A stretch of DNA of 64,000 nt from Escherichia phage vB_EcoM_E9.1. The DNA lies in the sequence record PP886230. The stretch is one strand, 5' to 3'. The notes below the pieces were generated by a model. The model was not told where the DNA came from. It did no database searches and saw only the letters and a list, made by a program, of their open reading frames with translations. A program made the position numbers and the translations under genes. This document shows positions 5,438 to 63,874 of this stretch, piece after piece (within the stretch, counting starts at the first letter, position 1; the number at the start of each line of letters is the position of its first letter).

Positions 5438-8400
5438 TTACTTAACTAATAATATATTTTTAATATCATTACCACTAACTTGTAGACTATCAGTGTATAC
5501 TGAAAGATCTATAGTGTAACTATTTTGTGTGTAACGTTTTAACATATCATAATTACCTAAATTAATTCCATTGAAAGAATATGTAGTATTAAGTTTAAAA
5601 TCATGTTCTGCACTATACATTACACCACGGAGTAAATTATTTGCATTTCTAACTTCAACTTTTTCATATCCAATCGATATAATATCATTCATGTTTGCGG
5701 CTGAACCGGATAAAACATTATTTCTAATACTATAAGGACTTATTGATTTAGGTTGAGAAACATAGGTTGTATTTTCTTCACTAATGGTTGTGATGTTAGT
5801 AACAGTACCACCAACAACACCGATATACATACCGTCAACCATTGGGAATCCATAAACCCATATCCCTTCATTATTTCTAAACGGTTGAATAACACTTGAA
5901 TCATATTCGATAACGTTGATTTCTAAACTATCAGTCATTTTAGTTCTTGCCAATTCACTAAGAACTCCCGCACCCGTAATTGGTAAGTTATAACCGTTAT
6001 CGATAGTAATTCCATCAACATCAAATATTTCATTAGAGATTATCCAAACGTCAACGTCATCTGGTGTTATTCCGTCATTGTACTTACCACCATTTAAAGT
6101 AGTATCGTAGAAAACATCATAATTAATTACATCAATGGTGTAATTTCTATTTTGTTCATACAATTTAATACCATTCTTGACAAATTCAGGGTCAGCAAAT
6201 GTTCTAACACGAACAATGTTCAATGCTAGAGGCTGTACTGGCTCATTTTGTTGTGCAAGAGTGATGTTATCATAACGGAGAACTGCACCAGTACTCTCAT
6301 CAATCAATTCAATCGTTTCCTTACCTGTATTTCTTACAGTGAATAGGATCGGAGTTGTATTGTTTTTGATGTTAGATACACGCAAGATTGTTTCCCATGT
6401 GTGATTTTGATATCTCACAAAATCTTCACCATCAGGAGTGAAAATCATCACCTTATCACCATCAGATAGGTCATTGTCAACTATTTCTGCTTCAGTTAAG
6501 CTATTAATAGATCTCACACGATAGAAATATTTTTCATCAAACTTCGATGTTGTTTTATTAATATCATTTTCAATCTTAGCATATGAAGGAATACTTACAA
6601 TTGCTTCTGTATGTTTATATGGATTGATAATTGCCATACCTTCAGTTTGATATCTGCTGTTATCACGTAATTGTACAAGAGATACATTGTCAAACCCATA
6701 TCCATCAACTGTAAATCTAATTTGACCTACATCACGCCCAGAAGGGTTTATGTCAGATATATCCACAATATAAGGATCAACTTCATCATCTTTAACTTCC
6801 CATTTTATTGAAGAAGTTTGAGATTCCAATGCTAGGTTATCAAATGCATTCATATCATTGAAGTACTTAGCTTCAGTAATACTATCAAGTATATATTGAT
6901 AATCAGAATACATTGGATTATTTTGATCTAGTGGTAAATCATCAAGATTTATTTCAGCTAGTTCAACCATTTCACCATTTGTGATAAAATAATCTTCCAT
7001 GAAATCATCAATACTTTGTTCATCAGGTATACTTTGATATACACCGTTAACATTTAAGTAAACATATTTTCGTGGAATCATTGTAATTGCATAGATATCA
7101 ATTGGGGTCTTACTAAGAATCTCTTCAGCTTTTTCGTACTTATCAGTAGCGTCTTTGTCGAATAACCCTCTCATACCTGCTAATACGTGAATAGCATCAG
7201 TATAGAAACGGGTATCACCACCTACTTCATCATAACGATAAACATATACACCATACTCAACTTCAAGTTTAACTTTTACTTCATAGTCTGATGCGTCAGG
7301 ATTTTTATCTTTAATTAATGAAATGTATTTTTGATACAATTCACTGCTTATTTCAAAATATCCATAGTTATAATCATTACTAGAAGAAAAGCCTAATGGA
7401 AGTCTAGTACTAGGATTGTCATTATAAGTAAGTCCACTAAATCCACATCCAACTTCATCGTGAATTTTCTCATCACTTATATCTTTATAAAGTTTCAAAC
7501 GGTTTGCCAATGTGTTATACTGAACATATTGTCTAAGGTCAGTAAACATATCGTTATGCGTTGATTCTTTATAAACACGTTCCAATGTAGCAGTGAATTC
7601 ATCAGTTGCTTCTAAATCTTCCGCATGGTCTTTATACCACTGGTTAACGCCATATGCTGTTCCTAGTGTTACATCCAATTCTGGATAGTAGATTTGCATT
7701 TGATAAGCAATAAGAAGATCGAAAGTTTCTTCACTATATTCTGGGAAAGAATATATATAACGTTGTAATTCATAGTTACTAACAGCATCCTTTTCATTGG
7801 ATTGATATTTGTTATTAACACTTACTAATTCATTTATGCTTGCCAAATCTTCATTTGGTTTACACTGAATATTATCATAATGCATAATAATATCAATTTC
7901 TTGGAATCTTCTATTTGGTGTAACGAAATCACTTGGTAGTGAACCTACCTGTTCCCATTTTTGGGTAATTTCATTAAATTGAGCGTACTCATAATCCCAA
8001 ATATCTTTTTCAGTTTTGATCCAATAACCATCAACGAAAATATATCCATTAGGATCTAAATCATTACATAGACCTTTTATTAAATCATCATCAGATGTCT
8101 TTTGCTCTATTTGTGAACGAATTTTAGTTCTATAAGGTTTAACTTCTTCAAAATATTCAACAATTTGATTAATCAAATTATCGTTTGAATAGTTTTGAAC
8201 TAATGATTGTTCCAAACCAACAATATAGATATATGATGTTTTAAATACCCAATCCACAACACTTTGTTCAACATGTACATATTTGACCATATCAAAAACA
8301 ATTTCGCTTTGATGTAAATCGAAAGAATTTTTGAGTAAAGCTAGTGCTTTACGAACGTTGATTTCACGATTGCTTAGTGAACCATTATCATTATGAACAC

Positions 8401-11400
8401 TATAATCTGCGTAAAGCATATCATTGAGTTCAACTGTACTGTTTTCACGACCAATCGCTTTCCAATAAATTGAATCGCGTGATTGTGATTTAATATACAA
8501 TGTCCAAATGTTTTCACTATCGGTAACTCTGATAATATCGCCAACTTGGTAGTTTTTAGTATTAGCATCTTCTAAGCTTGACTCTTGAGTATAAGTCGTG
8601 TTACTATCATATCCAACATCATACCAATCAGCATATGACCAGTACTGAGTCATGTCTAATGAGGTTCCTAGTGATTCAACATAATCAGATTGTTTAATCA
8701 TTTTATGTTGTCCCTCACCTTTGTTTTCTAACGTTATAGTAACAACACTACCCGCGTTTGCTGGACTATTCATTAACTGAATATATCCATTTTCGTCGAA
8801 GTGAATAAAATAAACAGCACTAGAAGTTAATGGATTTGGTAGATATCCACTAGTACTTAAAATAACAGCGTCATTTTCTTTAAATTTATCACTTTCAACT
8901 GCAATAACTAATTCATTATTGTAAGACAACACACGGAAAGAAACTTCATTAGGGTTAACTTCAGTGGTTTTAACATTAAACACATCTTCCATAACAACAC
9001 TATTAGTGGTTATGTTTTGTGATCTATAATAATTATTAGCACTTTCTACAAAGTTTCTACGAGCTTCTATAACATTTTGGAACCAAGTTTTGTTTGATCC
9101 TAAACCGTTATCAACATCTGGATATAATAAATTAATCACAGAACCTGATTCAGTAGTTTCTTGTCCAATTAAAGAATTCCACATTGAATCCCAAATTAGA
9201 GGGTTAAAGTTATAACTATCACCTTCCTTGCATAGTTGGTACTGATCATGTTTAACAACTTCAGTATTATCCATGTAATAAGAAATTGTCAAAATACTAG
9301 TATCATCATTAACTTTAAACTGCATATTACTAAGAATAAACGAGTTTTCATTGATTGGTGCAAACCAAGGAATGTTTAACTGTGATGGATCTTTAATAAT
9401 ACGAGCAATATCAGTACATGATTTTGTTCTGGTATGTAGTGGTGGTACATAAATGGTATCACGTACCCAGAAGTAGTATTTTGTAACATAAGTATCAGTT
9501 GAGCTATCATATTCCAAAAATGTACTATAGTTATCTTCAAGAGCGGTTCCGCTTGGTAGATACATAGTATTATTTTTGTTTTTCTTAGCAACGTCTTTAC
9601 AATACTTATCCCAATTATATGGCTCTACTGGAGAACAAACCCATTCCAACACATCAATGGTACTATGTGGTAATAAACGACCCCAGTTATAACGTTTGTA
9701 TTCATTAGTTGCATCAATATCAACGTTTCCGTCTGCATCATAAATTGCACGTGTATAATCCAAATAAAATGCAGTACTTGTATTCCACCATACTTGACCA
9801 ACTTTATCAGCACCCCAAGCCTGAATTAATTCACCATTGCTATTATATTGTGCTGGGTCTATTGGTGACGTATAAGTTACGTTTTGCATTGCTGCACCAG
9901 GAATAACCCCATTGATAGGGTCATACACATTTAGATATAATGCAGTAATGTTAGTACGTTCATCATATGTAGTTGGACGGTCAAAAAAAGTACTTTGTGG
10001 TGCTTTGTAACTATACTTTTTGTCAATATATGCTTGACGCTCTTCTGCACTGGCAAAACGTGATACATAACGATACAAACGTGGACGTGTATCTGGATCA
10101 GTAAATTCAATATCAATAGAAGTGTCAAATGGAACTACCATAACTTTAGGATCAGAACCAGCAGTATAATATTGACTTTCTACTGTTAAAGTATCTGGCA
10201 TAAAGTTAGTTTCATCAACAAAATAATAATAATCACCATCTTCAAGTGGTACATTATCAGTTAAAGTTACTTTACAAAATTGTTCAGCATACACATCGGT
10301 ATTTTCAATAGGTGTTATAGAAACCATTTGTACATTAGTATCAACTAATTCAAAAATATTCCATAAACCATTTCCGTCTTTAAACATCCAAACAGATTCA
10401 GGGTTTTCACCTTTACCATTAGTGTAAGTTATACGGTCATTATATGCAGTACTGAAATCTTTTGTAGTGTAAGATACTTCATCCAATGTTACTGGACCAA
10501 TATCTGGAAGTTGAATGTTTTCACTTCTTCCACTACGCATCGGGAATGAGAACTTACCATTTGGACGTGTAATCCAACGAGGATCTTTACCTTGTTCGCC
10601 GAAGTATACAATATTGTTTCCATTTCCATTTGAAGTAGCGTTTACATCAAAAGATACCATTTGTGGTTGTTGTTTAAATTGGTCATTGATTAGTTTAAAT
10701 TGAAGGTTTTTCTTACCATCAATATTACCATATGTACCAATTTTAAATGCCCATTCTTGTAATGCTTTATATTCATCAGTGTCATATGATTTAGAAACAC
10801 GAAGTACACGTTCTAAAACTTGGTTAGTACCTTTATCGTGAATGAATCCTTTATAGAAATCAACACGACTAACATCACTACTAATCATACGCTGTAGATA
10901 ATCACGAGATTGATAACCAATCAAATGGTTTGACAACTCTTGTAATTGTACATCACTTACTGGAGTTTCACTATCATAATAATGTTGGAAATCCGACACT
11001 AATTTTTCAAATGATGGTAGTGTTCCAGCTTCCAAGATAATAAATCCAGGAGCTTGTAGGCGACCAGTCCATGAACCAGTAATATATCCATACATTTTAA
11101 TTAGTTCTTGAATAGAACCATATGTTGGCTGATAAATGTAATCACCAAAAATAGTTTTATCATCAAAAATAACAGCATGTTCATATGAACACAAACTTAA
11201 ACGAATCAATGCAATGCGTTTATTAGATTCTAAAGTTCTAACAGTGAAGATATTTCCAATACGAGAAGTTTCAATTTCATATTGGCGAATACCTTGGTTA
11301 TTATCATCAAGTAATGACCATACACCACCATTATTTTGCGTAATAGATTGTACTGAACCAAAGTCTGCCCCAAATTTAGCGTTTGCAGAACTTGGGGTAC

Positions 11401-14400
11401 AAGAAATAAATTCACCAGTTACTAGAGAATTCTGACTCCAGATCACGAAATCTTTAGCAATAGTGTTCCAATCTTGTTGAGCACCACTATCATTTACATC
11501 TTCAAAAATCCAACCATGTTCTTTAAGATATTCACCATATCCACAAATAAAAGTATAAACTTCTTGGTAACTATTGAAAACTTTACCATATTCAATTGAA
11601 GCTTCAGACTTCCATTCATTATAATGAACAACATTACGGTTTTCCAATTTAAGAGTTACTTTTCTACCATTTTTTACGGGAAGTTTATATTTAAATTTAG
11701 CACCAACTAGATCATATCCATCAATCTGATATGCACTACCATTCCAAGTAATTTTGATCGCACTCATTTGCTCATCACGGATATTATTAGAACGAACAAG
11801 ACCAATGGTTTGGTTTTCTTGTGAAATAAGACCGAAAGATTTAGCATTGAATGTTAGCTGATCTGCTTTAGTAAATCCTCCAATTTTATGACCAACATTT
11901 ATATAAGAAGAACGAACTACATCCCCATACTTGGTGGTAATATTTTTATTTTGATACATCAAATGGTCACTTACAAACATTTGATAACCAATGGTTCTTG
12001 TGCTATTTTCACCATGAACTACTGTATTTTTATCAAAATTAATACGCTTACGTGTATCACCATAAAGGAATTGTGAACCATCAGTGAATACTTCTTTTAA
12101 GTTATCATTGCGGGTATCCCAGAAATAGTTAGCAAATTGTGCTGGTTTAGCTTTATACAAAAGCATCATTTGGTCATATGCAAACAATGTAGTGTTCATG
12201 TATGTAAATTCCATGTCACCCATATCACCATATGTCCAAGGTTCTGCTCTATGATTTAAAGATCCAGACACTAAACCTAAAATTTCAGGTGCAATATATT
12301 CAACCACACAAATATCAATACCAGAAGATGTTTTATTTCCAGTTTTTGTAATTTTGAATGGCTGTACACCAAATCTTTTATATTTGTCATATTGACCACG
12401 ACGATCACCAAATAAAATAGTTCCAGTACTGCTATCTCCAATAGTTCCGTCAATATCCCAAAGACCACTAGGAACTAAATCACCTTGCTCATTCATAACA
12501 AGTGCTTCATATACATATACAACATCACTATCACGTTCACCAACTTGAACAGCCGTTGGTTCGTATTCTTGGTTCCACCAAGTTGGACGTTGTGTAAAGC
12601 CAAACATTTCCCACGGATGGGTAGCTGGGCGATATGTACCATATTGGTCAGTGTAAATGGCACGCCATGAACCACGTGCAGGAATTTCAGTACTTTGGCC
12701 ATTAACTACATAATAAGTGCCAGTATAGTTCCAAGTTCTCCAATTGTTAGGATCATAATCATGTGTACTATTACTGATACCATTAGTTGCGGTGAAGTTA
12801 ATGTATCCACGTAGTAATAATGTTTGTTTCTCTTCAGCACTATATTCAGTTTTAGTGAAATATGGTGTAGGGAAAAGGTCATCACTATTCAATACTGGTA
12901 CGTAATCAACATCTTTGAATTTATTATCAATACTATTAAAAATTCTATTTTCTAATTCATATACAACATCATCCATTTTATCAACACCATTGATAACACG
13001 GTATGCTTTGGAAATAATACCAGTATGACTGATGTTATAACAGCTTGGTTTACTACCAGCAGTGAGGAATGTCGCTTTTTCTGGTACATATGCTTGAAGA
13101 ATACCTAAGAACTGTGGTGTTGGTGGTATAAATGCACGAATGAATCCAGAAGTACTTCCAACATTATCATAATAGAATGGGAATGAACTATCACGTCCCA
13201 TATTAATAGTAGTTAAAATTGCATCAACAATGTTTGCAGCACTATTTTGTAAAAAGTCTGATGGATTTTCATCATACATACGAAGCATTTGTGTATTAAA
13301 TTTATTAATGAATCTAAAATATTCAGATTGCATAAACATAGTTGCTTCAAACAAATCAATATCTTCATTTGCAGTATGTGCCATCAATGGAAGCATAGAT
13401 GCTTCATTTTGGATAATTTTAGTACCTACGCCATTATTAACCAATCCTTTAGCCAAACGTTCTTCATAGTCATTGAAATCATCAGAAGAACCACGTGTAA
13501 TGTTCTTTTGAATAATATCCTGAAAATGTAAAGTGTAGTCACCTTGGTTAATGTATATAATATTAGAATTATATGGGTTATTTTGTAGGTTGATTGGAAC
13601 TTCATATGCACCTAATTCTTTATTAGGAGTTACAGTACTGCTATAAGTTCTGATTTGAATAACAGAATCTTCATCCAATTCTACAGTACTATCTAGAGTG
13701 ATGCTTTGTACTTGACCTTTTGAAACATTTTTGGTATATTTGGACACATCAACACCATCAACCACAACTTCAATAATATCAGAGTCATTATCTAAAACTT
13801 TTTGTGCCAATTCGAATGTATGGTCATATTTTACAATCTGAACACCATCACCAGTAATTGGATGCCAATCTAGATAAGTTTCTCGGTCAGCTTTATAGTA
13901 CTGATATGTTCTATCAACTTCAATAACATATGCATACATACCATCAACTGGTTCTTTAAAAACTTCCATATCATAAACAGTACTGAATACACGATACATA
14001 TCAGTACGTTGGACTTGTGGAGTTTGTTTTACAAATTGTTTAGAGTACTCTTCTGAACGAACCCAATCGGTTTGAAGATTCATTTCATTATTTTCATCAA
14101 TAATGTTATAATAGTATAAACCATCAATTTCAACTTCTTTTCCAAGATGGTCATAGGTATAACGTTGGGATTGTAAAAAGTTTTCATAAATGTAATAATT
14201 ATAATCACCAAGTTCAATGTTATATCCATATACACTATCAGTTGCATAGTTGTAATTTATTTTAAAACCAAACAACTCTGAACCTTTAAAGTTACTTGAT
14301 GGATATGTAGTACTGTTGTCAAGTTTGATACCATTACGATCATAAAGTTGGAATTTAGGGAATACGTTAACACTAGTTTTTGATTGTGCACGAACCCACA

Positions 14401-15409
14401 AAGATCCATTCCAGTACATAGAACTATTACCATACTCATTACCTTTAGTGATTAGAACAACATCACCATCTTGTGGTTCACCACTTGGGCGTGATTCGGT
14501 TTCTTCTTCTGGATCTAGTGCTAAACCATAAACACGAGTACCATCTTGCATTTTTTTCACATATACATTATAAATTCTATTGTTTTCACCATTGTTACCA
14601 ATACTGGTGAATAGAATACGCATTCCATCTTGCGGAATAATACCATCAATACGTATACCACTATTAATATCTTTTTGAACGATATCTTCAGGTTTAATAA
14701 TATCAGAGAACAGATCAACAGTTCCACGGAATTTTGTACCGTAGTTAATTAGCTCAATATTTTTATTATATTCAATAATTGGTGCACGTGCACGAATAAA
14801 ACGTGAATCTTGCATTAATTCTTCAGTTAATATTGAGCCATCTTCTAATGTTTCACCTAAAGTATACCAAAAGTTTTGTAGTGACCATGTATTACCATTA
14901 AGTGCTCCACGTTCCATTACAATGTAATCAGGTGAAGTAATATTATAAGAGTTTTTAGTATCCCAAAGATATGAGCTAAAATTGTTCATTTTATTTGGGT
15001 TAATAGCTGGAGTCCATGCATAAAACTTACCGTTGAACAAACGGCTTTCATTATCGGTTAGTGCTCCATAATGATTCATGTATCCAACTAGATCATCATA
15101 AAATTGAATTGAACGAATTGTCGAATCATCATTTTTTGAGACGTAAGCAGTGGACAACTGATAAAGTTGACGTGCTACAGTACTTTCATGTAAGAAGATA
15201 TTACCAGCAGCGGCAGGAGAACCCATATCACCAATATAGCCGTCAACTAATTCGTTTTCAGCCGGATTAAACCATTGTTGAATAACATCATCACTGACTT
15301 TTTGAATATCTTCTAAGCCTTGCATCCACTCAGGCAATCTTTTAATAAAAAGCTTCTTCTGTACTGCTTCAGCCATCTGTGTAGGTTGAAACTTAAAATT
15401 ATTAGTCAT
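5438..15409 (-). CDS. giant virion protein, about 3320 aa; possibly a baseplate/fibre protein in the gp7 position
   Basis: Uninterrupted 10-kb ORF directly downstream of the gp6-like gene. The second ATG (15409) has a GGAG SD; the first ATG (15439) does not. No catalytic motif recognised. Confidence 0.7.
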   Translation of the reverse strand: MTNNFKFQPTQMAEAVQKKLFIKRLPEWMQGLEDIQKVSDDVIQQWFNPAENELVDGYIGDMGSPAAAGNIFLHESTVARQLYQLSTAYVSKNDDSTIRSIQFYDDLVGYMNHYGALTDNESRLFNGKFYAWTPAINPNKMNNFSSYLWDTKNSYNITSPDYIVMERGALNGNTWSLQNFWYTLGETLEDGSILTEELMQDSRFIRARAPIIEYNKNIELINYGTKFRGTVDLFSDIIKPEDIVQKDINSGIRIDGIIPQDGMRILFTSIGNNGENNRIYNVYVKKMQDGTRVYGLALDPEEETESRPSGEPQDGDVVLITKGNEYGNSSMYWNGSLWVRAQSKTSVNVFPKFQLYDRNGIKLDNSTTYPSSNFKGSELFGFKINYNYATDSVYGYNIELGDYNYYIYENFLQSQRYTYDHLGKEVEIDGLYYYNIIDENNEMNLQTDWVRSEEYSKQFVKQTPQVQRTDMYRVFSTVYDMEVFKEPVDGMYAYVIEVDRTYQYYKADRETYLDWHPITGDGVQIVKYDHTFELAQKVLDNDSDIIEVVVDGVDVSKYTKNVSKGQVQSITLDSTVELDEDSVIQIRTYSSTVTPNKELGAYEVPINLQNNPYNSNIIYINQGDYTLHFQDIIQKNITRGSSDDFNDYEERLAKGLVNNGVGTKIIQNEASMLPLMAHTANEDIDLFEATMFMQSEYFRFINKFNTQMLRMYDENPSDFLQNSAANIVDAILTTINMGRDSSFPFYYDNVGSTSGFIRAFIPPTPQFLGILQAYVPEKATFLTAGSKPSCYNISHTGIISKAYRVINGVDKMDDVVYELENRIFNSIDNKFKDVDYVPVLNSDDLFPTPYFTKTEYSAEEKQTLLLRGYINFTATNGISNSTHDYDPNNWRTWNYTGTYYVVNGQSTEIPARGSWRAIYTDQYGTYRPATHPWEMFGFTQRPTWWNQEYEPTAVQVGERDSDVVYVYEALVMNEQGDLVPSGLWDIDGTIGDSSTGTILFGDRRGQYDKYKRFGVQPFKITKTGNKTSSGIDICVVEYIAPEILGLVSGSLNHRAEPWTYGDMGDMEFTYMNTTLFAYDQMMLLYKAKPAQFANYFWDTRNDNLKEVFTDGSQFLYGDTRKRINFDKNTVVHGENSTRTIGYQMFVSDHLMYQNKNITTKYGDVVRSSYINVGHKIGGFTKADQLTFNAKSFGLISQENQTIGLVRSNNIRDEQMSAIKITWNGSAYQIDGYDLVGAKFKYKLPVKNGRKVTLKLENRNVVHYNEWKSEASIEYGKVFNSYQEVYTFICGYGEYLKEHGWIFEDVNDSGAQQDWNTIAKDFVIWSQNSLVTGEFISCTPSSANAKFGADFGSVQSITQNNGGVWSLLDDNNQGIRQYEIETSRIGNIFTVRTLESNKRIALIRLSLCSYEHAVIFDDKTIFGDYIYQPTYGSIQELIKMYGYITGSWTGRLQAPGFIILEAGTLPSFEKLVSDFQHYYDSETPVSDVQLQELSNHLIGYQSRDYLQRMISSDVSRVDFYKGFIHDKGTNQVLERVLRVSKSYDTDEYKALQEWAFKIGTYGNIDGKKNLQFKLINDQFKQQPQMVSFDVNATSNGNGNNIVYFGEQGKDPRWITRPNGKFSFPMRSGRSENIQLPDIGPVTLDEVSYTTKDFSTAYNDRITYTNGKGENPESVWMFKDGNGLWNIFELVDTNVQMVSITPIENTDVYAEQFCKVTLTDNVPLEDGDYYYFVDETNFMPDTLTVESQYYTAGSDPKVMVVPFDTSIDIEFTDPDTRPRLYRYVSRFASAEERQAYIDKKYSYKAPQSTFFDRPTTYDERTNITALYLNVYDPINGVIPGAAMQNVTYTSPIDPAQYNSNGELIQAWGADKVGQVWWNTSTAFYLDYTRAIYDADGNVDIDATNEYKRYNWGRLLPHSTIDVLEWVCSPVEPYNWDKYCKDVAKKNKNNTMYLPSGTALEDNYSTFLEYDSSTDTYVTKYYFWVRDTIYVPPLHTRTKSCTDIARIIKDPSQLNIPWFAPINENSFILSNMQFKVNDDTSILTISYYMDNTEVVKHDQYQLCKEGDSYNFNPLIWDSMWNSLIGQETTESGSVINLLYPDVDNGLGSNKTWFQNVIEARRNFVESANNYYRSQNITTNSVVMEDVFNVKTTEVNPNEVSFRVLSYNNELVIAVESDKFKENDAVILSTSGYLPNPLTSSAVYFIHFDENGYIQLMNSPANAGSVVTITLENKGEGQHKMIKQSDYVESLGTSLDMTQYWSYADWYDVGYDSNTTYTQESSLEDANTKNYQVGDIIRVTDSENIWTLYIKSQSRDSIYWKAIGRENSTVELNDMLYADYSVHNDNGSLSNREINVRKALALLKNSFDLHQSEIVFDMVKYVHVEQSVVDWVFKTSYIYIVGLEQSLVQNYSNDNLINQIVEYFEEVKPYRTKIRSQIEQKTSDDDLIKGLCNDLDPNGYIFVDGYWIKTEKDIWDYEYAQFNEITQKWEQVGSLPSDFVTPNRRFQEIDIIMHYDNIQCKPNEDLASINELVSVNNKYQSNEKDAVSNYELQRYIYSFPEYSEETFDLLIAYQMQIYYPELDVTLGTAYGVNQWYKDHAEDLEATDEFTATLERVYKESTHNDMFTDLRQYVQYNTLANRLKLYKDISDEKIHDEVGCGFSGLTYNDNPSTRLPLGFSSSNDYNYGYFEISSELYQKYISLIKDKNPDASDYEVKVKLEVEYGVYVYRYDEVGGDTRFYTDAIHVLAGMRGLFDKDATDKYEKAEEILSKTPIDIYAITMIPRKYVYLNVNGVYQSIPDEQSIDDFMEDYFITNGEMVELAEINLDDLPLDQNNPMYSDYQYILDSITEAKYFNDMNAFDNLALESQTSSIKWEVKDDEVDPYIVDISDINPSGRDVGQIRFTVDGYGFDNVSLVQLRDNSRYQTEGMAIINPYKHTEAIVSIPSYAKIENDINKTTSKFDEKYFYRVRSINSLTEAEIVDNDLSDGDKVMIFTPDGEDFVRYQNHTWETILRVSNIKNNTTPILFTVRNTGKETIELIDESTGAVLRYDNITLAQQNEPVQPLALNIVRVRTFADPEFVKNGIKLYEQNRNYTIDVINYDVFYDTTLNGGKYNDGITPDDVDVWIISNEIFDVDGITIDNGYNLPITGAGVLSELARTKMTDSLEINVIEYDSSVIQPFRNNEGIWVYGFPMVDGMYIGVVGGTVTNITTISEENTTYVSQPKSISPYSIRNNVLSGSAANMNDIISIGYEKVEVRNANNLLRGVMYSAEHDFKLNTTYSFNGINLGNYDMLKRYTQNSYTIDLSVYTDSLQVSGNDIKNILLVK

Positions 15410-15455
15410 TTTTGGACTCCATATAATTCGTTCATTCATTTGATTTATTTATGAT

Positions 15456-30718: not shown

Positions 30719-30746
30719 GAGACAACTTTAAAGTTTGTGCTATAAT
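30719..30746 (+). promoter_or_regulatory. early sigma70-like promoter (GAGACA-N16-TGcTATAAT) driving a noncoding region
   Basis: GAGACA 30719-30724, 16-nt spacer, TGc-TATAAT 30738-30746; no ORF downstream for about 450 nt. Confidence 0.55.
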
Positions 30747-30752
30747 GTTTGT

Positions 30753-31207
30753 TGTAGTAATGACAATCCTGTTGAATGCAGAAATGCATATAAATTAGAA
30801 CCTGATCCTATCGAAAATGTAGATGGCAGATGAGCAGTTCAACAGTGCGATGAGCAAAAGAAACCCGTTAGATGTGGGCATAGTTTGAACCCCTCACGGC
30901 AATGCGGCTCAATAAAGAACTCCGATAAGCATACAGAGAGTTCCTAGATAGACATATAAGGATCGCACCTTACCAGATTTGCTAAGGGAGTTTATTAAGT
31001 GATTTTAATAAACAGCCTGAAGTTTGATTGTATAGACTTTCAGGTGAGTGTCAGGATGATTAAGACTGACGACCGTTGCACATGACTGCGATAGAGAGAA
31101 ACAGAGCAACCCGCTTTCGTTCTTAATATATTTTTAAGAAATTCGCAATACAATAAATGCTGAAACCATCAGCGTCAAGAAATAGAGACTTCATTGTCTC
31201 TTTTTTA
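30753..31207 (+). ncRNA. candidate structured noncoding RNA, about 450 nt, class unknown
   Basis: No ORF longer than about 28 codons on either strand; visibly more G+C than the flanks; several hairpins including a GAAA tetraloop (30776-30789); bounded by a promoter and an intrinsic terminator. Confidence 0.45.
31184..31207 (+). terminator. intrinsic terminator ending the candidate RNA
   Basis: AGAGAC-ttcatt-GTCTCT followed by T-run 31201-31206; a second GC hairpin CCCC-tgc-GGGG lies at 31214-31235. Confidence 0.65.
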
Positions 31208-31425
31208 TTGTCTTCATTCCCCTGCGGGGGGATGAAAATGTCCTCAACAAATCCCGTCAAGTATTAAATCTTTTAAAGTTCTTTATAATTAATTTAATTA
31301 AATGAATATGAGTTACGTAGTAACGAATATTCTTCAGCTAACGAATGAAATGAGTTAGATGAATCCAATAATATTAAAATTAATCCTTTCATAATTCAAT
31401 TCAAATAATTCTGTAGTTTAAAACC

Positions 31426-36895: not shown

Positions 36896-36996
36896 ATCAA
36901 AAATCGCACTTTTTAAAGCTTTTAAAAAAGGCGATTTTATTCAGTACTAAATAATATCATACTTTATACGAATGTAATATATCTATGGAGGATATA

Positions 36997-37845
36997 ATGG
37001 CGAATTTAAAACTACTACAAGAAGCAATTGCGGCGTTTGCAAATGGCGAACAAGATATTGCTGATAAAAAAATGCGTAAGTATTTCGTTGAGCAAGCTCA
37101 AGAAATTAACAAACAACTAGAAGAAAGCATGGAAGATGAAGACGACGATGAAGATTGTGAAGTCGAAGTTAAAGTCAAAGATGAAGAAAAGCTTGACGAA
37201 GATTTTGATGTACAACCAGACGAAGGTCTAAATGCTGAAATCGAATACACCCTTGGTGAAGAAGATGAAAGTGCAGAAGAAGAAGTTGAATTCTCTGCTG
37301 ATGCAGATGGTGACGGTGAAGACGATGTTGACGTTGAAGTGAAAGCTGATGCTGATGTTCCTTCCGAAGACCAATGGGAATCAATCCAAGATGCTTTCCG
37401 TGGCCTACAACAAATGTTTGATGAAATCGGTGACGGTGAAGTTGATCTAGATTCTGAAGAAGAAGTAGAAGATAGCGAAGAAGAAGTTGGCGTTGACGGT
37501 GACGACGAATTTGCTGATGTTGAATTCGGTGATGAAAAATTCGGTGAATCCTTCAAACTAGAAAAAGTTGCTCCAGTTGATAAGAAAGAAAAAGCTGGCA
37601 CTCATTCCAAATCTCCAGTAGCACCAGAAGCTAAATCTCCAGTAGCAGGAGCAGAGCCAGTTAAATTCGCTAAGAAAACTGACCAAGCACCACTACTAGA
37701 CCTAGATGATAAATCTGTTCTACCAAAAGATAGTCTAGATCTTGGTAAAAATGCTCGCGGTGAAATGAAAGATGTTAAAGCACCAAAAACTACTGCATCT
37801 AATTCTAAATCACCACTAAGCAAAGCACAACCTAAACTAAAATAA
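36997..37845 (+). CDS. highly acidic prohead core / scaffold-like protein
   Basis: Asp/Glu-rich low-complexity sequence; preceded by CTAAATAATATCATACT late-promoter motif at 36947-36963. ATG 36997 has a GGAGG SD; the track ATG at 36985 lies inside that SD. Confidence 0.5.
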   Translation: MANLKLLQEAIAAFANGEQDIADKKMRKYFVEQAQEINKQLEESMEDEDDDEDCEVEVKVKDEEKLDEDFDVQPDEGLNAEIEYTLGEEDESAEEEVEFSADADGDGEDDVDVEVKADADVPSEDQWESIQDAFRGLQQMFDEIGDGEVDLDSEEEVEDSEEEVGVDGDDEFADVEFGDEKFGESFKLEKVAPVDKKEKAGTHSKSPVAPEAKSPVAGAEPVKFAKKTDQAPLLDLDDKSVLPKDSLDLGKNARGEMKDVKAPKTTASNSKSPLSKAQPKLK

Positions 37846-57833: not shown

Positions 57834-58868
57834 ATGAAATCTCTAGCTGAAATTCGTGCACACCTAAAAGCAGAACAAGAAAAAGCAGAAGCTCAAAAGA
57901 ATGGTACATTTACTGGTGAGCGTAAAGCTGATTCGTTCTTAGCTTTCTGGAACGTACCTTATAACGAACCACTAAACCTACGTTTTCTACCAGATGCAGA
58001 TGAGTCTAACCCATTCTTCTGGCGTGAACGTGACATGATTAACCTAACTTTCAATGGTGTAGTCGGTATGCACACTGATAAAGTTACCGTTCAAGTACCT
58101 TGTAACGAAATGTGGGTTCCTAAATCCTGTCCGGTTCTGAAAGAAGTACGTCAATGGTTCCAAAGTGCGAATGAAACAGGGAACGAAGAACTAAAAGCAA
58201 TGGCTGGTCGTTACTGGAAGAAGAAAACCTATCTAATGCAATGTTTTATTGCTCCTGATAGCGTTGCAGTAAAAGACGACATTGCACCAGAAAATCCAAT
58301 TCGTCGTATTCTGGCTAACAAAGATATCTTTGATAAAGTTAAATCCATCCTGCTAAATCCAGGCATCAAAGAGTCTCCAACTCACTACGTTCAAGGTCGT
58401 GATTTTGGTATTGTTAAAACTAAGAATGGTGGTGGTTATAATAGCTACGACATGTCTCAATTCTCCATGTCTGAGCGTCCACTAAACGAAGAAGAACTAG
58501 CAGCAATTGAAAAATATGGCCTATACAATCTAAATGATTTTATGCCAAAACAACCAACTCCAGAAGAGTTGAAAGCAATTGAAGAAATGTTCGAAGCATC
58601 AGTAAATGGTGAAGCATATGATCCAGCACGTTGGGCATTTGCATATCGTCCAGCAGGTGTACCAAAACCTAACTCTGGAACTGTTACTGAATCAAAACCA
58701 ACTCCTGCTCCAGTACAACAAGAGTCAGCACCTGCACCAGTTACACCAGCCCCACAAGCTGCTCCAGTAACTCCAGTCGCTACCCCAGCAGCAACCACTC
58801 CTGAAGCACCAAAAGAACAACTATCTGCATCTGCACTAGTTGCTCGTTTGAAACAACAAGGTAAGTAA
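57834..58868 (+). CDS. 32: ssDNA-binding protein, gp32-like, with Pro/Ala/Thr-rich C-terminal tail
   Basis: LRFLPDADESNPF resembles the T4 gp32 LRFLPS region as recalled; Cys/His cluster CNEMWVPKSCP; C-terminal PAPVTPAPQAAPVTP low-complexity tail. Confidence 0.65.
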   Translation: MKSLAEIRAHLKAEQEKAEAQKNGTFTGERKADSFLAFWNVPYNEPLNLRFLPDADESNPFFWRERDMINLTFNGVVGMHTDKVTVQVPCNEMWVPKSCPVLKEVRQWFQSANETGNEELKAMAGRYWKKKTYLMQCFIAPDSVAVKDDIAPENPIRRILANKDIFDKVKSILLNPGIKESPTHYVQGRDFGIVKTKNGGGYNSYDMSQFSMSERPLNEEELAAIEKYGLYNLNDFMPKQPTPEELKAIEEMFEASVNGEAYDPARWAFAYRPAGVPKPNSGTVTESKPTPAPVQQESAPAPVTPAPQAAPVTPVATPAATTPEAPKEQLSASALVARLKQQGK

Positions 58869-61398: not shown

Positions 61399-62883
61399 AT
61401 GAAAACTTGTAAGTTAACCTTATTGGATGAGGTGAATTGTAAATTTGAGGGACTTGATCCCTCAATTAGACAAAAGATGATTCGTGCAACTGAATATGTG
61501 TTACCATATGCAAAGTTCACACCAGCAGGACGTATTGGACGTTGGGATGGTAAAGTTCAGTTTATGAATTTAGGCGGGACAACTTATTATCATATGTTAG
61601 ATAAGTTATTGCCTATTCTTGATGAAGCTAAGATTGACATTGAATTAGTAGATCATAGGGTAGATTATGGATTTAAATTTGACCCCATTGATGAAGATAT
61701 TTTTAGTGATGTTGTATTCGGTGCAGGACACCACATGGAAGGTAAATCCATAAAACTACGTGAACATCAAGTTAATGCGGTTAATGCATGTTTGGCTAAT
61801 CCACACGGACTACTATTGGCAGCTACTGGTGCAGGTAAAACTCTCATTACTGCTGCATTGTCAAAGAAAGTGCAAGAGTATGGACGTTCTGTTATAATAG
61901 TACCAAGTACTGACTTAGTACAACAAACATATGATGACTACATTATGTGTGGGTTGGATACTGGCATGTTCTATGGTTCACAAAAAGATTTTGGTCACCA
62001 ACATACTATTACGACTTGGCAATCATTTAACTCTCTATGGAAGAAAACCAAGAAAGGTGAAATTGAATTAACTGAACAAGACGTGAATGATTTTATCGAT
62101 GGAGTAGTTTGTGTTATCGTTGATGAGTGTCAAGGTGCAGGCGGTGACGCATTAGTTCAAGTACTTTCTAAAGTTATGAATAACGTACCATTACGTTGGG
62201 GTCTTACTGGAACAATTCCTAAAGATCCGGTAGTTGCCGCGAAAATCAAATGTAATGTTGGTGATGTTATATTTAAAATAACTGCAAAGGAATTACAAGA
62301 TAAACAAATACTAAGTACATGTAATGTGAATTGCATCAAACTAAAAAGTAGTATGAAGTTTGCATCATATGCTGAAGAGTTGAAATACTTAGTAACTGAC
62401 AGAGATAGGATGGCATATGTAGCGTCATTGATATCTGCGTTATCTGAATCAGGAAACACTTTAGTTTTAGTAGATAGACTTGAAGCAGGTGAGTTGCTAT
62501 GTGAATTTTTAGGCATTCCCAAATCAGAATTCGTTCGTGGAGAAACTAAAAAGAAAGATCGAGAATCATCTTATGGTGAAATTCGTTGGGCTGATAATAA
62601 AATACTTATTGCGACATACGGCGTTGCCAGTACGGGTATTAGTATTTCAAGGTTATATAATGTAGTATTGATTGAGCCAGGAAAAAGTTTTGTAAGAACT
62701 ATACAGTCAATTGGACGTGGATTACGCCGAGCAGAAGATAAAGACCACGTAGAAATATATGATATTAGTGGTTCTAATAAGTATAGTGCCAAGCATTTAC
62801 GAGAACGTTTAGCTTACTATAAGGAAGCACAATATCCTCATAGTATAATAGATGTTAAAGATTGGGAAAACACAGCGGGATAA
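61399..62883 (+). CDS. uvsW: SF2 helicase, UvsW-like
   Basis: Motif I LLAATGAGKT, motif II VIVDECQ; N-terminal GRIGRWDGKVQFMN resembles T4 UvsW NPRFRYGNWDGRIRLLD as recalled. Confidence 0.75.
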   Translation: MKTCKLTLLDEVNCKFEGLDPSIRQKMIRATEYVLPYAKFTPAGRIGRWDGKVQFMNLGGTTYYHMLDKLLPILDEAKIDIELVDHRVDYGFKFDPIDEDIFSDVVFGAGHHMEGKSIKLREHQVNAVNACLANPHGLLLAATGAGKTLITAALSKKVQEYGRSVIIVPSTDLVQQTYDDYIMCGLDTGMFYGSQKDFGHQHTITTWQSFNSLWKKTKKGEIELTEQDVNDFIDGVVCVIVDECQGAGGDALVQVLSKVMNNVPLRWGLTGTIPKDPVVAAKIKCNVGDVIFKITAKELQDKQILSTCNVNCIKLKSSMKFASYAEELKYLVTDRDRMAYVASLISALSESGNTLVLVDRLEAGELLCEFLGIPKSEFVRGETKKKDRESSYGEIRWADNKILIATYGVASTGISISRLYNVVLIEPGKSFVRTIQSIGRGLRRAEDKDHVEIYDISGSNKYSAKHLRERLAYYKEAQYPHSIIDVKDWENTAG

Positions 62884-62904
62884 ACCCGCTGTTTGTGATA
62901 TAAT
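62877..62904 (+). promoter_or_regulatory. early sigma70-like promoter (GGGATA-N16-TGaTATAAT)
   Basis: TATAAT 62899-62904 with TGa extension. Confidence 0.45.
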
Positions 62905-62938
62905 GTGTCATATGACAACAACAAGGATGTAAAATAAA

Positions 62939-63367
62939 ATGGAATTGAGATCTAGTATTGCTTTTATTTGTGACCAAGAAACTTTAGAAGTTATGGATGT
63001 ATTGTTGAACGATGATGGTATTATGGATGACATGGTATCTTCTCTTGACTATATACCTGAGCTAGAAACGGATGATACTAACGTATGGAGATGTAATATT
63101 GATAGTGATTCTTGGATTAATATCTATGAATTACAGACACGAATTGATTCTAAAGTAGAATCATTGAAATATGATATCATCTATGCAAGTACTGACACGA
63201 AAACTTTTATTGATGTAGTAAGTCTAAGTGGTAATTTTGATTCATATCTGGATACTGATGTAGATAAAATTCAAGAGATGTGTGAAACTTATGGACTTGA
63301 ATTTTATGGGGTAGAAGACCAAGATGATGAAGAATATTATGATGACGAAGAAGATTCGCAGTACTAA
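62939..63367 (+). CDS. highly acidic small early protein, 142 aa
   Basis: About a quarter Asp/Glu with very few basic residues; C-terminal EDQDDEEYYDDEEDSQY; early promoter upstream. Confidence 0.5.
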   Translation: MELRSSIAFICDQETLEVMDVLLNDDGIMDDMVSSLDYIPELETDDTNVWRCNIDSDSWINIYELQTRIDSKVESLKYDIIYASTDTKTFIDVVSLSGNFDSYLDTDVDKIQEMCETYGLEFYGVEDQDDEEYYDDEEDSQY

Positions 63368-63376
63368 GGAGATGAC

Positions 63377-63874
63377 ATGAACGTATTAACACCTGAAAAT
63401 AATTCTTTTGACATGGATTTAGTAACAGAACATATCCCTGAAGAAATGTATTGTGTTTTGGATCTAAGCCCAAATGGTGAATCTGATTTTTATTTTAGAC
63501 ATATTCTAAACACCGTATCATTTAATAGTATTAGTGCTGATCTTCAAATTGGTGAAAAGATTATTCAAGTGCCTCTAGGATGGCAAATTATGTTAGGTGA
63601 TGAAGAAACTGGTATGGTTGAGATGTGTACAATTGAAAACATTCTTAACATGAAAGAACCAAAAGCTTTTGTTTACAATCCTATCCGTTCAATGTATCCT
63701 AAGTTTGAACCAGTCAAAGTACTACGTGTATTTGCATTAACTACAAAGTGGCAGATACCAATGTTACCTAAAAAGAATTTACTATGCGTCCCACTACATA
63801 GTGGTGAAAATCCACCATGTGTGTACTTTGCAGATGAAAACGAAAAAATTCAAGATTTGTATCTAGGAGTATAA
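63377..63874 (+). CDS. hypothetical protein, 165 aa
   Basis: Track ORF only. Confidence 0.45.
   Translation: MNVLTPENNSFDMDLVTEHIPEEMYCVLDLSPNGESDFYFRHILNTVSFNSISADLQIGEKIIQVPLGWQIMLGDEETGMVEMCTIENILNMKEPKAFVYNPIRSMYPKFEPVKVLRVFALTTKWQIPMLPKKNLLCVPLHSGENPPCVYFADENEKIQDLYLGV

Follow-up and report, generated by a model that had tools for sequence, protein, structure and literature searches.

A small, highly acidic protein encoded in the replication and recombination block of an Asteriusvirus jumbo phage: a possible accessory of the phage DNA machinery

The question raised by this locus is what role is played by a very acidic protein of 142 amino acids (aa), the open reading frame (ORF) of which occupies positions 62939-63367 of a 64,000-nucleotide (nt) stretch of DNA from Escherichia phage vB_EcoM_E9.1 (PP886230), referred to here in its full length as the window. 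According to the original prediction, made from the sequence, the protein was a candidate DNA mimic or anti-restriction factor of the Ocr or ArdA kind, expressed from an early promoter. The present results indicate that the protein more likely serves the DNA machinery of the phage than anti-restriction of the Ocr/ArdA type, a preference based on the fixed place of the gene inside a block of replication and recombination genes. Mechanistically, the most reasonable class is that of an acidic protein acting on basic surfaces that bind nucleic acid and, within this class, a lineage-specific accessory of the phage's own replication/recombination machinery, docking on such surfaces, is put forward tentatively, as a reading that falls somewhat short of probable.

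The 3 kb of DNA round the acidic gene was 99.7-99.9% identical to that of Asteriusvirus jumbo phages with genomes of approximately 350 kb (relatives at this level being PBECO4, 121Q, slurp01, phAPEC6, Sharanji and Salmonella phage SD-2_S15), and the source of the window is an Asteriusvirus jumbo phage of the RaK2/PBECO4 type. Orthologues of the acidic gene (PBECO4 gp493, 121Q gp11, CBB_282 and RaK2 ORF119) are annotated in all relatives as encoding a hypothetical protein. The sole family assignment obtained was to phrog_16541 (E = 1.2e-76, residues 1-142 aligned with profile positions 1-143 of 145), which carries no functional annotation. That the gene is real and strongly conserved was evident from homologues in many phages, from low ratios of nonsynonymous to synonymous substitution (dN/dS) and from a conserved Shine-Dalgarno sequence and N-terminus. 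Thus, AGGA or AAGGA occurred at the same position in aligned relatives from phages of Enterobacterales, and the N-terminus MELRSS was kept among relatives.

Homologues of the acidic protein were distributed over 61 protein clusters and 72 phage records, and every one of the 72 RaK2-like genomes of the collection carried the gene. The gene is under purifying selection, with dN/dS values of 0.04-0.23 against relatives in which synonymous sites were saturated or nearly so. The acidic gene and the gene that follows it, which encodes a free-standing Hint-fold protein, were counted equally often in each of nine host genera, made up of enterobacterial genera and Xanthomonas (e.g., 33 and 33 for Escherichia, 11 and 11 for Klebsiella, 8 and 8 for Salmonella and 8 and 8 for Erwinia), a pattern that identifies the former as core to the RaK2-like clade. 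When 1.84 billion representative proteins were searched with a profile, approximately 20 more distant lineages were added, all of them metagenomic. These distant members were without exception stand-alone and 128-156 aa long, and neither domain fusions nor named proteins were returned when a 5.8-billion-protein set was searched with a profile in turn. Three long matches (P0068, P0080 and P0083) were rejected as false positives, these being repeat proteins that scored through summed weak matches.

The composition of the protein was as described in the original prediction, that is, about one quarter Asp and Glu with few basic residues. Thus, Asp and Glu accounted for 40 of the 142 residues (28.2%) and Lys and Arg for 7 (4.9%), with no His, a net charge of -33 and a computed isoelectric point of 4.05. 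At -0.232 net charge per residue, the protein was the most acidic product of the 47 long ORFs in the window, for most of which this value was between -0.07 and +0.05. The acidic tail noted at the same time was likewise borne out, the final 18 residues (VEDQDDEEYYDDEEDSQY) having a net charge of -12 and the remainder of the protein one of -21. Both features extended through the family. Net charge was between -25 and -38 in 79 members with identities down to approximately 20-40%, and the median net charge of their last 20 residues was -11, with Lys or Arg present in this region in only 2 of the 79. An aromatic residue (Phe, Trp or Tyr) was found among the last four positions of 77 of these proteins and at the terminal position of 64. 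Conservation of the tail tip and of overall charge over the 79 members indicates that these are selected features rather than products of drift. Positions that remained conserved at 20-40% identity were core hydrophobic residues together with D86, S95 and D101. As a separate observation, a second comparably acidic ORF was noted at 36985..37845 on the + strand; its 286-aa product (31% Asp and Glu, net charge -56, basic C-terminus) matched phrog_15696, annotated as a virion structural protein.

An AlphaFold2 model of the acidic protein, built with a 27-sequence alignment, had a mean predicted local distance difference test score (pLDDT) of 77.6 and a predicted template modelling score (pTM) of 0.70, with means of 77-90 for 10-residue blocks of the globular part and values below 50 for residues 126-142. 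The predicted order of elements, beta-alpha-beta-beta-alpha-beta-beta-beta-alpha, describes a ferredoxin-like alpha/beta core. Structure prediction, which had been proposed as a check on DNA mimicry, thus failed to bear out that idea, since DNA mimics were absent among the listed top 50 PDB matches obtained with Foldseek. No PDB match was obtained at E<0.001, the best being generic ferredoxin-like or ACT domains (E approximately 0.07-0.1). Among the BFVD viral models only two matched strongly, namely the orthologue from RaK2 and a viral protein of 127 aa that is probably the Vibrio phage homologue. Weak likeness of fold (E 4e-3 to 0.1, TM-scores of 0.4-0.5) was also noted in BFVD to YubB/Api92-type ferredoxin-like proteins of giant viruses and phages, whose sequence similarity to the acidic protein was not significant, the latter having no Pfam match. 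This lead was set aside, the Foldseek match being weak, the YubB domain itself of unknown function and a literature search unproductive.

Pfam, NCBIfam and PADLOC models gave no match to the family, and PDB sequences gave none with either the single protein sequence or the family profile. With E-values up to 1, none of 27 members matched Pfam models for Ocr, ArdA, ArdB/KlcA, Gam, DinI, PsiB or any other family, including SSB or gp32. The family is thus one that is already catalogued but orphan, with no detectable relatives among known acidic mimics and no close solved fold. DNA binding by the protein itself is unlikely in view of the mere 7 Lys and Arg residues that it holds, and a role as sliding clamp or other DNA-binding protein was rejected for the same reason and because clamp-like folds were absent among the fold matches. 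Identity with UvsW.1, suggested by the location of the gene after uvsW, is also unlikely, given the lack of family matches and an alpha/beta fold as opposed to the trihelical fold described for UvsW.1.

The gene directly upstream of the acidic gene (Table 1) is annotated helicase or uvsW in relatives, and the order of genes in PBECO4 was terminase, a structural gene, gp32-like ssb, uvsX, uvsY, a DnaQ-like exonuclease gene, uvsW, the acidic gene and the 165-aa Hint-fold gene, followed by genes for products of approximately 280, 235, 100 and 210 aa, the last of which was assigned to a PHROG annotated 'DNA polymerase'. A weak N-terminal zinc-finger match was noted for the product of approximately 235 aa. 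In a separate observation on the same operon, the conserved 236-aa protein PBECO4 gp490 (L001 11706-12416, outside the window) was found to match PDB sequences weakly at its N-terminus, the match being to a C2H2-like zinc finger (E = 0.04). Farther downstream in PBECO4 are an opposite-strand gene, a structural gene and then the genes for a DnaG-type primase and a DnaB-type helicase. The acidic gene is the first of a promoter-headed, tightly spaced run in which the Hint-fold gene comes next and which continues, in relatives, with four further conserved genes. The arrangement of uvsW, acidic gene and Hint-fold gene, with primase and DnaB genes later, was found in PBECO4, in seven isolated phages of six genera, among them Vibrio phage 2.275.O, and in two deeply divergent metagenomic lineages (profile E = 1.9e-21 for P0065 and 1.3e-7 for P0076). 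This fixed position therefore spans phages of Enterobacterales, Xanthomonas and Vibrio as well as uncultured relatives. Homologues of T4 gp45, gp62 and gp59 were reported to be undetectable in CBB, and unrecognised replisome parts are therefore to be expected in the block; a split minimal Pol III alpha has been described for this phage group (PMC7824862).

The promoter assigned to the gene in the original prediction is, on the evidence of its sequence, taken to be real, although its designation as early was not upheld. The motif GGGAYA-N13-TGnTATAAT occurred at six sites in the window as opposed to 0.06 expected, all six on the + strand and five directly upstream of genes (Table 1). The copy before the acidic gene has a non-canonical -35 box and an extended -10 TG at 62896-62897, its spacer ending in TGa, and the -10 element TGATATAAT was conserved before the orthologues in Ecwhy_1, A4, Hallingskeid, Munch, CBB and RaK2. 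The counterpart of this promoter in CBB, Porf_282 (TGGAATGAGTTAAATTTTTGTGATATAAT), is listed in a 'divergent RpoD-like' class with -35 sequence TGAAACG that its authors link to genes of DNA synthesis (PMC5259590); the -35 box itself was GGGATA in the window and TGGAATG in the CBB orthologue. Together, motif enrichment, the -10 element shared across genera and the published CBB counterpart argue for a genuine promoter. A generic scan for sigma-70 promoters missed this site, but that scan was uninformative because AT-rich DNA gave 26 sites compared with 24.7 expected. As to timing, the classical CBB promoters of RpoD type with UP element cluster among small genes, CBB_390-546, in a region that the authors regard as early (PMC5259590), and RNA sequencing of PA5oct, a more distant relative of the window phage, placed early transcription in the terminal-repeat region and genes of DNA metabolism and replication in the middle and late periods (PMC7318152). 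The acidic gene has neither an RpoD-type promoter with UP element nor a location in the region of small early genes. To judge from its motif, the promoter probably acts in delayed-early or middle times, as one of the replication-module class, and this class may be read by a phage-encoded RpoD-like sigma factor.

A hairpin of -14.3 kcal/mol (z = -3.5 relative to shuffled sequences, by RNA folding) extends over the stop codon of the helicase gene as well as the -35-like box and is followed merely by TTTGTG. It was kept in the Asteriusvirus relatives Ecwhy_1 and A4 and was absent from Munch, CBB and RaK2, other hairpins being present at the equivalent spot in more distant relatives. It is probably a weak terminator or an RNA-end structure; an Rfam scan near the acidic gene gave sub-threshold matches only.

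The sixth promoter of the motif class, at 30719-30746 on the + strand (GAGACA-N16-TATAAT with TGTGc), was noted at the head of approximately 520 nt in which ORFs of at least 37 aa are absent from the same strand. The ORF-poor stretch, 30719-31270, terminates in a strong hairpin plus T-run (AGAGACTTCATTGTCTCTTTTTTATT) like that of a terminator. It matched no tRNA and no Rfam family, was conserved by megablast in 57 phage records, and was found by the same means at several places per genome, with a single copy in the window. It is a candidate non-coding RNA.

The mechanism proposed for the acidic protein draws on a well-known principle. In E. coli SSB and in T7 gp2.5 and gp4, an acidic C-terminal tip serves to recruit or gate proteins of replication and recombination, as does the acidic domain of T4 gp32. 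The tail of the acidic protein is likewise rich in Asp and Glu, predicted to be disordered and aromatic at or near its end, but whereas SSB-type tips are carried by an OB-fold DNA binder, this tail is carried by a small acidic ferredoxin-like domain. By analogy, the negative surface of the protein, chiefly its acidic-aromatic tip, would dock, in the manner of nucleic acid, where a partner in the module has a basic groove or pocket that binds DNA, and this docking would regulate or bridge the partner protein. This partner could be UvsX, UvsW, a protein encoded in the gene's own operon or the gp32-type SSB, which in this clade has no acidic tail. The gp32-type SSB of the clade ends instead in a conserved basic amphipathic peptide (SALVARLKQQGK, ALRAKLAQNK, LLARLRAQRG and LLAKLKAAKGE), and C-termini of this kind, placed after a linker rich in Pro, Ala and Thr, are shared by the gp32-type SSBs of the whole group of jumbo phages (e.g., SALVARLKQQGK, DIIALIRARQ and DLIAQLKARQ). 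In contrast with SSB, UvsX of the clade retains an acidic tail. Service to the phage's own machinery is further supported by the promoter, which belongs to a class shared with the genes for SSB, an exonuclease and a gp55-like late sigma factor.

Several findings weigh on the other side. Basic SSB C-termini were also found in PA5oct, Atu_ph07 and Phosso, and tblastn searches performed with the acidic protein and two distant members of its family detected no homologue in phages of Pseudomonas, Agrobacterium or Sinorhizobium. The pairing of basic SSB motif and acidic protein is therefore not specific, and the case for such a pairing was weakened by the wider distribution of the motif. Unrelated proteins, neutral or basic, occupied the slot after uvsW and before the Hint-fold gene in PA5oct and SCTP-2 (Table 1). 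The function is therefore dispensable or replaceable in neighbouring lineages, and the acidic protein is a lineage-specific occupant of a conserved slot. The possibility that PA5oct gp268 is a non-acidic homologue was considered and rejected, since its local resemblance to the acidic protein (..SGDFD..) was not significant by hhalign. Finally, the composition of the protein is as Ocr-like as possible, and the location of lambda gam and T7 5.9 beside recombination genes renders synteny of the present kind compatible with an anti-host role.

This last point bears on an explanation in which the protein mimics DNA so as to inhibit a nuclease of the host that acts on DNA ends, or another widely conserved DNA-binding machine of the host (e.g., RecBCD or MukBEF), in the way of Gam or gp5.9. 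The linear intermediates from which a 350-kb genome is replicated by recombination would thus be protected. Lambda gam adjoins bet and T7 5.9 adjoins the exonuclease gene 6, while the acidic gene lies directly downstream of ssb, uvsX, uvsY, the exonuclease gene and uvsW, so that these known RecBCD inhibitors, which are also small and acidic, share its kind of neighbourhood. Conservation of RecBCD extends across the clade's gamma-proteobacterial hosts, which would suit a core, syntenic gene. The extreme negative charge of both globular part and tail agrees with this explanation, as does the precedent of T7 gp5.9, a DNA mimic by which MukBEF is reportedly inhibited (PMC7617805). The charge density of the acidic protein, however, is far above that of lambda Gam (-0.058 per residue) or T7 gp5.9 (-0.154 per residue), hhalign probabilities were only 0.37% and 0.60%, respectively, and the predicted alpha/beta fold is unlike that of either inhibitor. 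Moreover, the hairpin and the promoter separate the acidic gene from the recombination genes and group it with replication-type genes downstream. Inhibition of a host nuclease or similar machine is consequently regarded as somewhat unlikely. Two further variants are conceivable. In one, the protein is a stand-alone 'acidic tip', of a fold not described before in this role, that gives the tail-less gp32-type SSB in trans the interaction or gating function present in cis in other SSBs; in the other, it is a DNA mimic of new structure that keeps a conserved host nuclease away from replication intermediates. Each would define a new structural class of mimic, one integrated in the core replisome module of RaK2-like jumbo phages; that either holds appears unlikely.

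The classic anti-restriction explanation, in which a mimic like Ocr or ArdA acts against type I restriction-modification, BREX or similar systems, rests on a close compositional match. The values for T7 Ocr were 29.1% Asp and Glu, 5.1% Lys and Arg and -0.239 net charge per residue, compared with 28.2%, 4.9% and -0.232 for the acidic protein; the two are of the same size class (117 and 142 aa), both have an acidic C-terminal tail that contains Tyr (...EEVEEYEEDEE in Ocr), and an extended -10 promoter of sigma-70 type is located immediately upstream of the acidic gene. On the other hand, the hhalign probability of the family profile with T7 Ocr was 0.08%, and no homology to Ocr, ArdA or ArdB was found in the 27 scanned members. 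For ArdA and ArdB/KlcA there were in addition no matches among Pfam, NCBIfam and PHROG anti-restriction families and none among the listed Foldseek PDB matches. The fold of Ocr is all-helical as opposed to the alpha/beta fold predicted here, and the Ocr gene is at the first-expressed end of its genome whereas the acidic gene, with a promoter of the replication class, is inside the replication block. The analogy with Ocr is therefore one of composition only. Anti-restriction genes are typically accessory, variable and expressed first, and the acidic gene, which is core, syntenic and served by a replication-class promoter, presents the opposite pattern; it is outside the small, early and variable region that houses the host take-over functions of relatives, and it is kept in phages with very different hosts and restriction-modification repertoires. 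Thus, of the original proposal, the compositional likeness to Ocr stood while relationship by sequence or fold did not, and core position and promoter class point away from anti-restriction, which is judged highly improbable. A different possibility is that the protein, with no general role as DNA mimic, is dedicated as chaperone, inhibitor or substrate-like subunit to another protein of its operon, for which the adjacent Hint-fold protein is the most obvious candidate. The invariant adjacency of the two genes and their apparent co-transcription are in line with such a partnership, purifying selection acts on both, and family-wide conservation of D86, S95 and D101 suggests a specific site beyond charge. 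However, the Hint-fold gene is the more widely distributed of the two, PA5oct-like phages and SCTP-2 carrying it with no acidic partner, and its product is itself acidic (net charge -11), so that simple charge complementarity does not apply. A dedicated partnership of this kind is accordingly considered quite unlikely. Compared with these explanations, the preferred, tentative reading remains that of an accessory to the machinery with which the phage replicates and recombines its own DNA.

The Hint-fold neighbour is at least as interesting as the acidic protein. An AlphaFold2 model of this protein (pLDDT 84.8, pTM 0.82) was all-beta, and its top 41 PDB matches were all inteins, Hedgehog Hint domains or BIL domains, mostly with probabilities of 0.8-1.0 and query-normalised TM-scores of 0.38-0.58, the best match being 6zgq_A (E = 6.4e-4). 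The protein has no exteins. Cys26, which is near-invariant, lies in a YCVLDLS motif resembling block A and comes after a conserved N-terminal peptide of 25 residues; no obvious TxxH motif was seen. With dN/dS values of 0.015-0.09, the gene is more conserved than that of the acidic protein, and it was present in 88 records, including those of PA5oct-like phages and Salicola phage SCTP-2. It followed the acidic gene in every locus compared, with gaps of 10 bases or fewer except for 203 bases in the Vibrio phage. Read-through or fusion of the two ORFs was considered and rejected, the ORFs being in frame in Asteriusvirus and CBB but out of frame in Hallingskeid, Munch and RaK2.

Table 1. Positions of the features discussed; coordinates are those of the window unless another locus is named.
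Feature	Position	Strand	Description
Acidic-protein coding sequence	62939..63367	+	ATG start, 142 aa plus stop
Globular domain	62939..63310	+	aa 1 to about 120-124, compact in AlphaFold2 model
Acidic-aromatic C-terminal tail	63311..63364	+	aa 125-142, VEDQDDEEYYDDEEDSQY, predicted disordered
Shine-Dalgarno sequence	62923-62927	+	AAGGA, 11 nt upstream of ATG
Promoter	62877-62904	+	-35-like GGGATA 62877-62882, 16-nt spacer, -10 TATAAT 62899-62904
Hairpin	62872..62892	+	8-bp stem ACAGCGGG/CCCGCUGU, 5-nt loop
Promoter motif sites	26018, 30719, 52423, 57644, 57719, 62877	+	GGGAYA-N13-TGnTATAAT pattern search
Motif-led gene, gp55-like late sigma factor	26103
Motif-led gene, exonuclease/RNase H-type	52456
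Motif-led gene, gp32-type SSB	57834-58868	+	two tandem motif sites; no acidic tail
uvsW-type superfamily 2 DNA helicase	61399..62883	+	494 aa; Pfam ResIII, DEAD, Helicase_C; phrog_16
Free-standing Hint-fold gene	63377..63874	+	165 aa; PBECO4 gp492; phrog_11279
PA5oct gp268	L013 6739-6990		83 aa, neutral, in uvsW-Hint slot
SCTP-2 gene 144	L014 5459-5962		167 aa, basic, low-complexity, in uvsW-Hint slot

Elsewhere in the window, a very large ORF was noted on the - strand at 5438-15439, with a product of 3333 aa and a net charge of -181.

Phages of the RaK2/PBECO4 type reportedly have no recognisable T4 sliding clamp, small clamp-loader subunit or helicase loader. Assignment of roles to the conserved but unassigned genes between uvsW and those for primase and helicase, beginning with the acidic gene and its Hint-fold neighbour, would show how a partly non-canonical replisome copies a genome of 350 kb. 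If the acidic protein should prove to be a true DNA mimic with a new fold, it would be an addition to the small set of structurally distinct mimics, which are of value both as tools and as markers of phage-host conflict.

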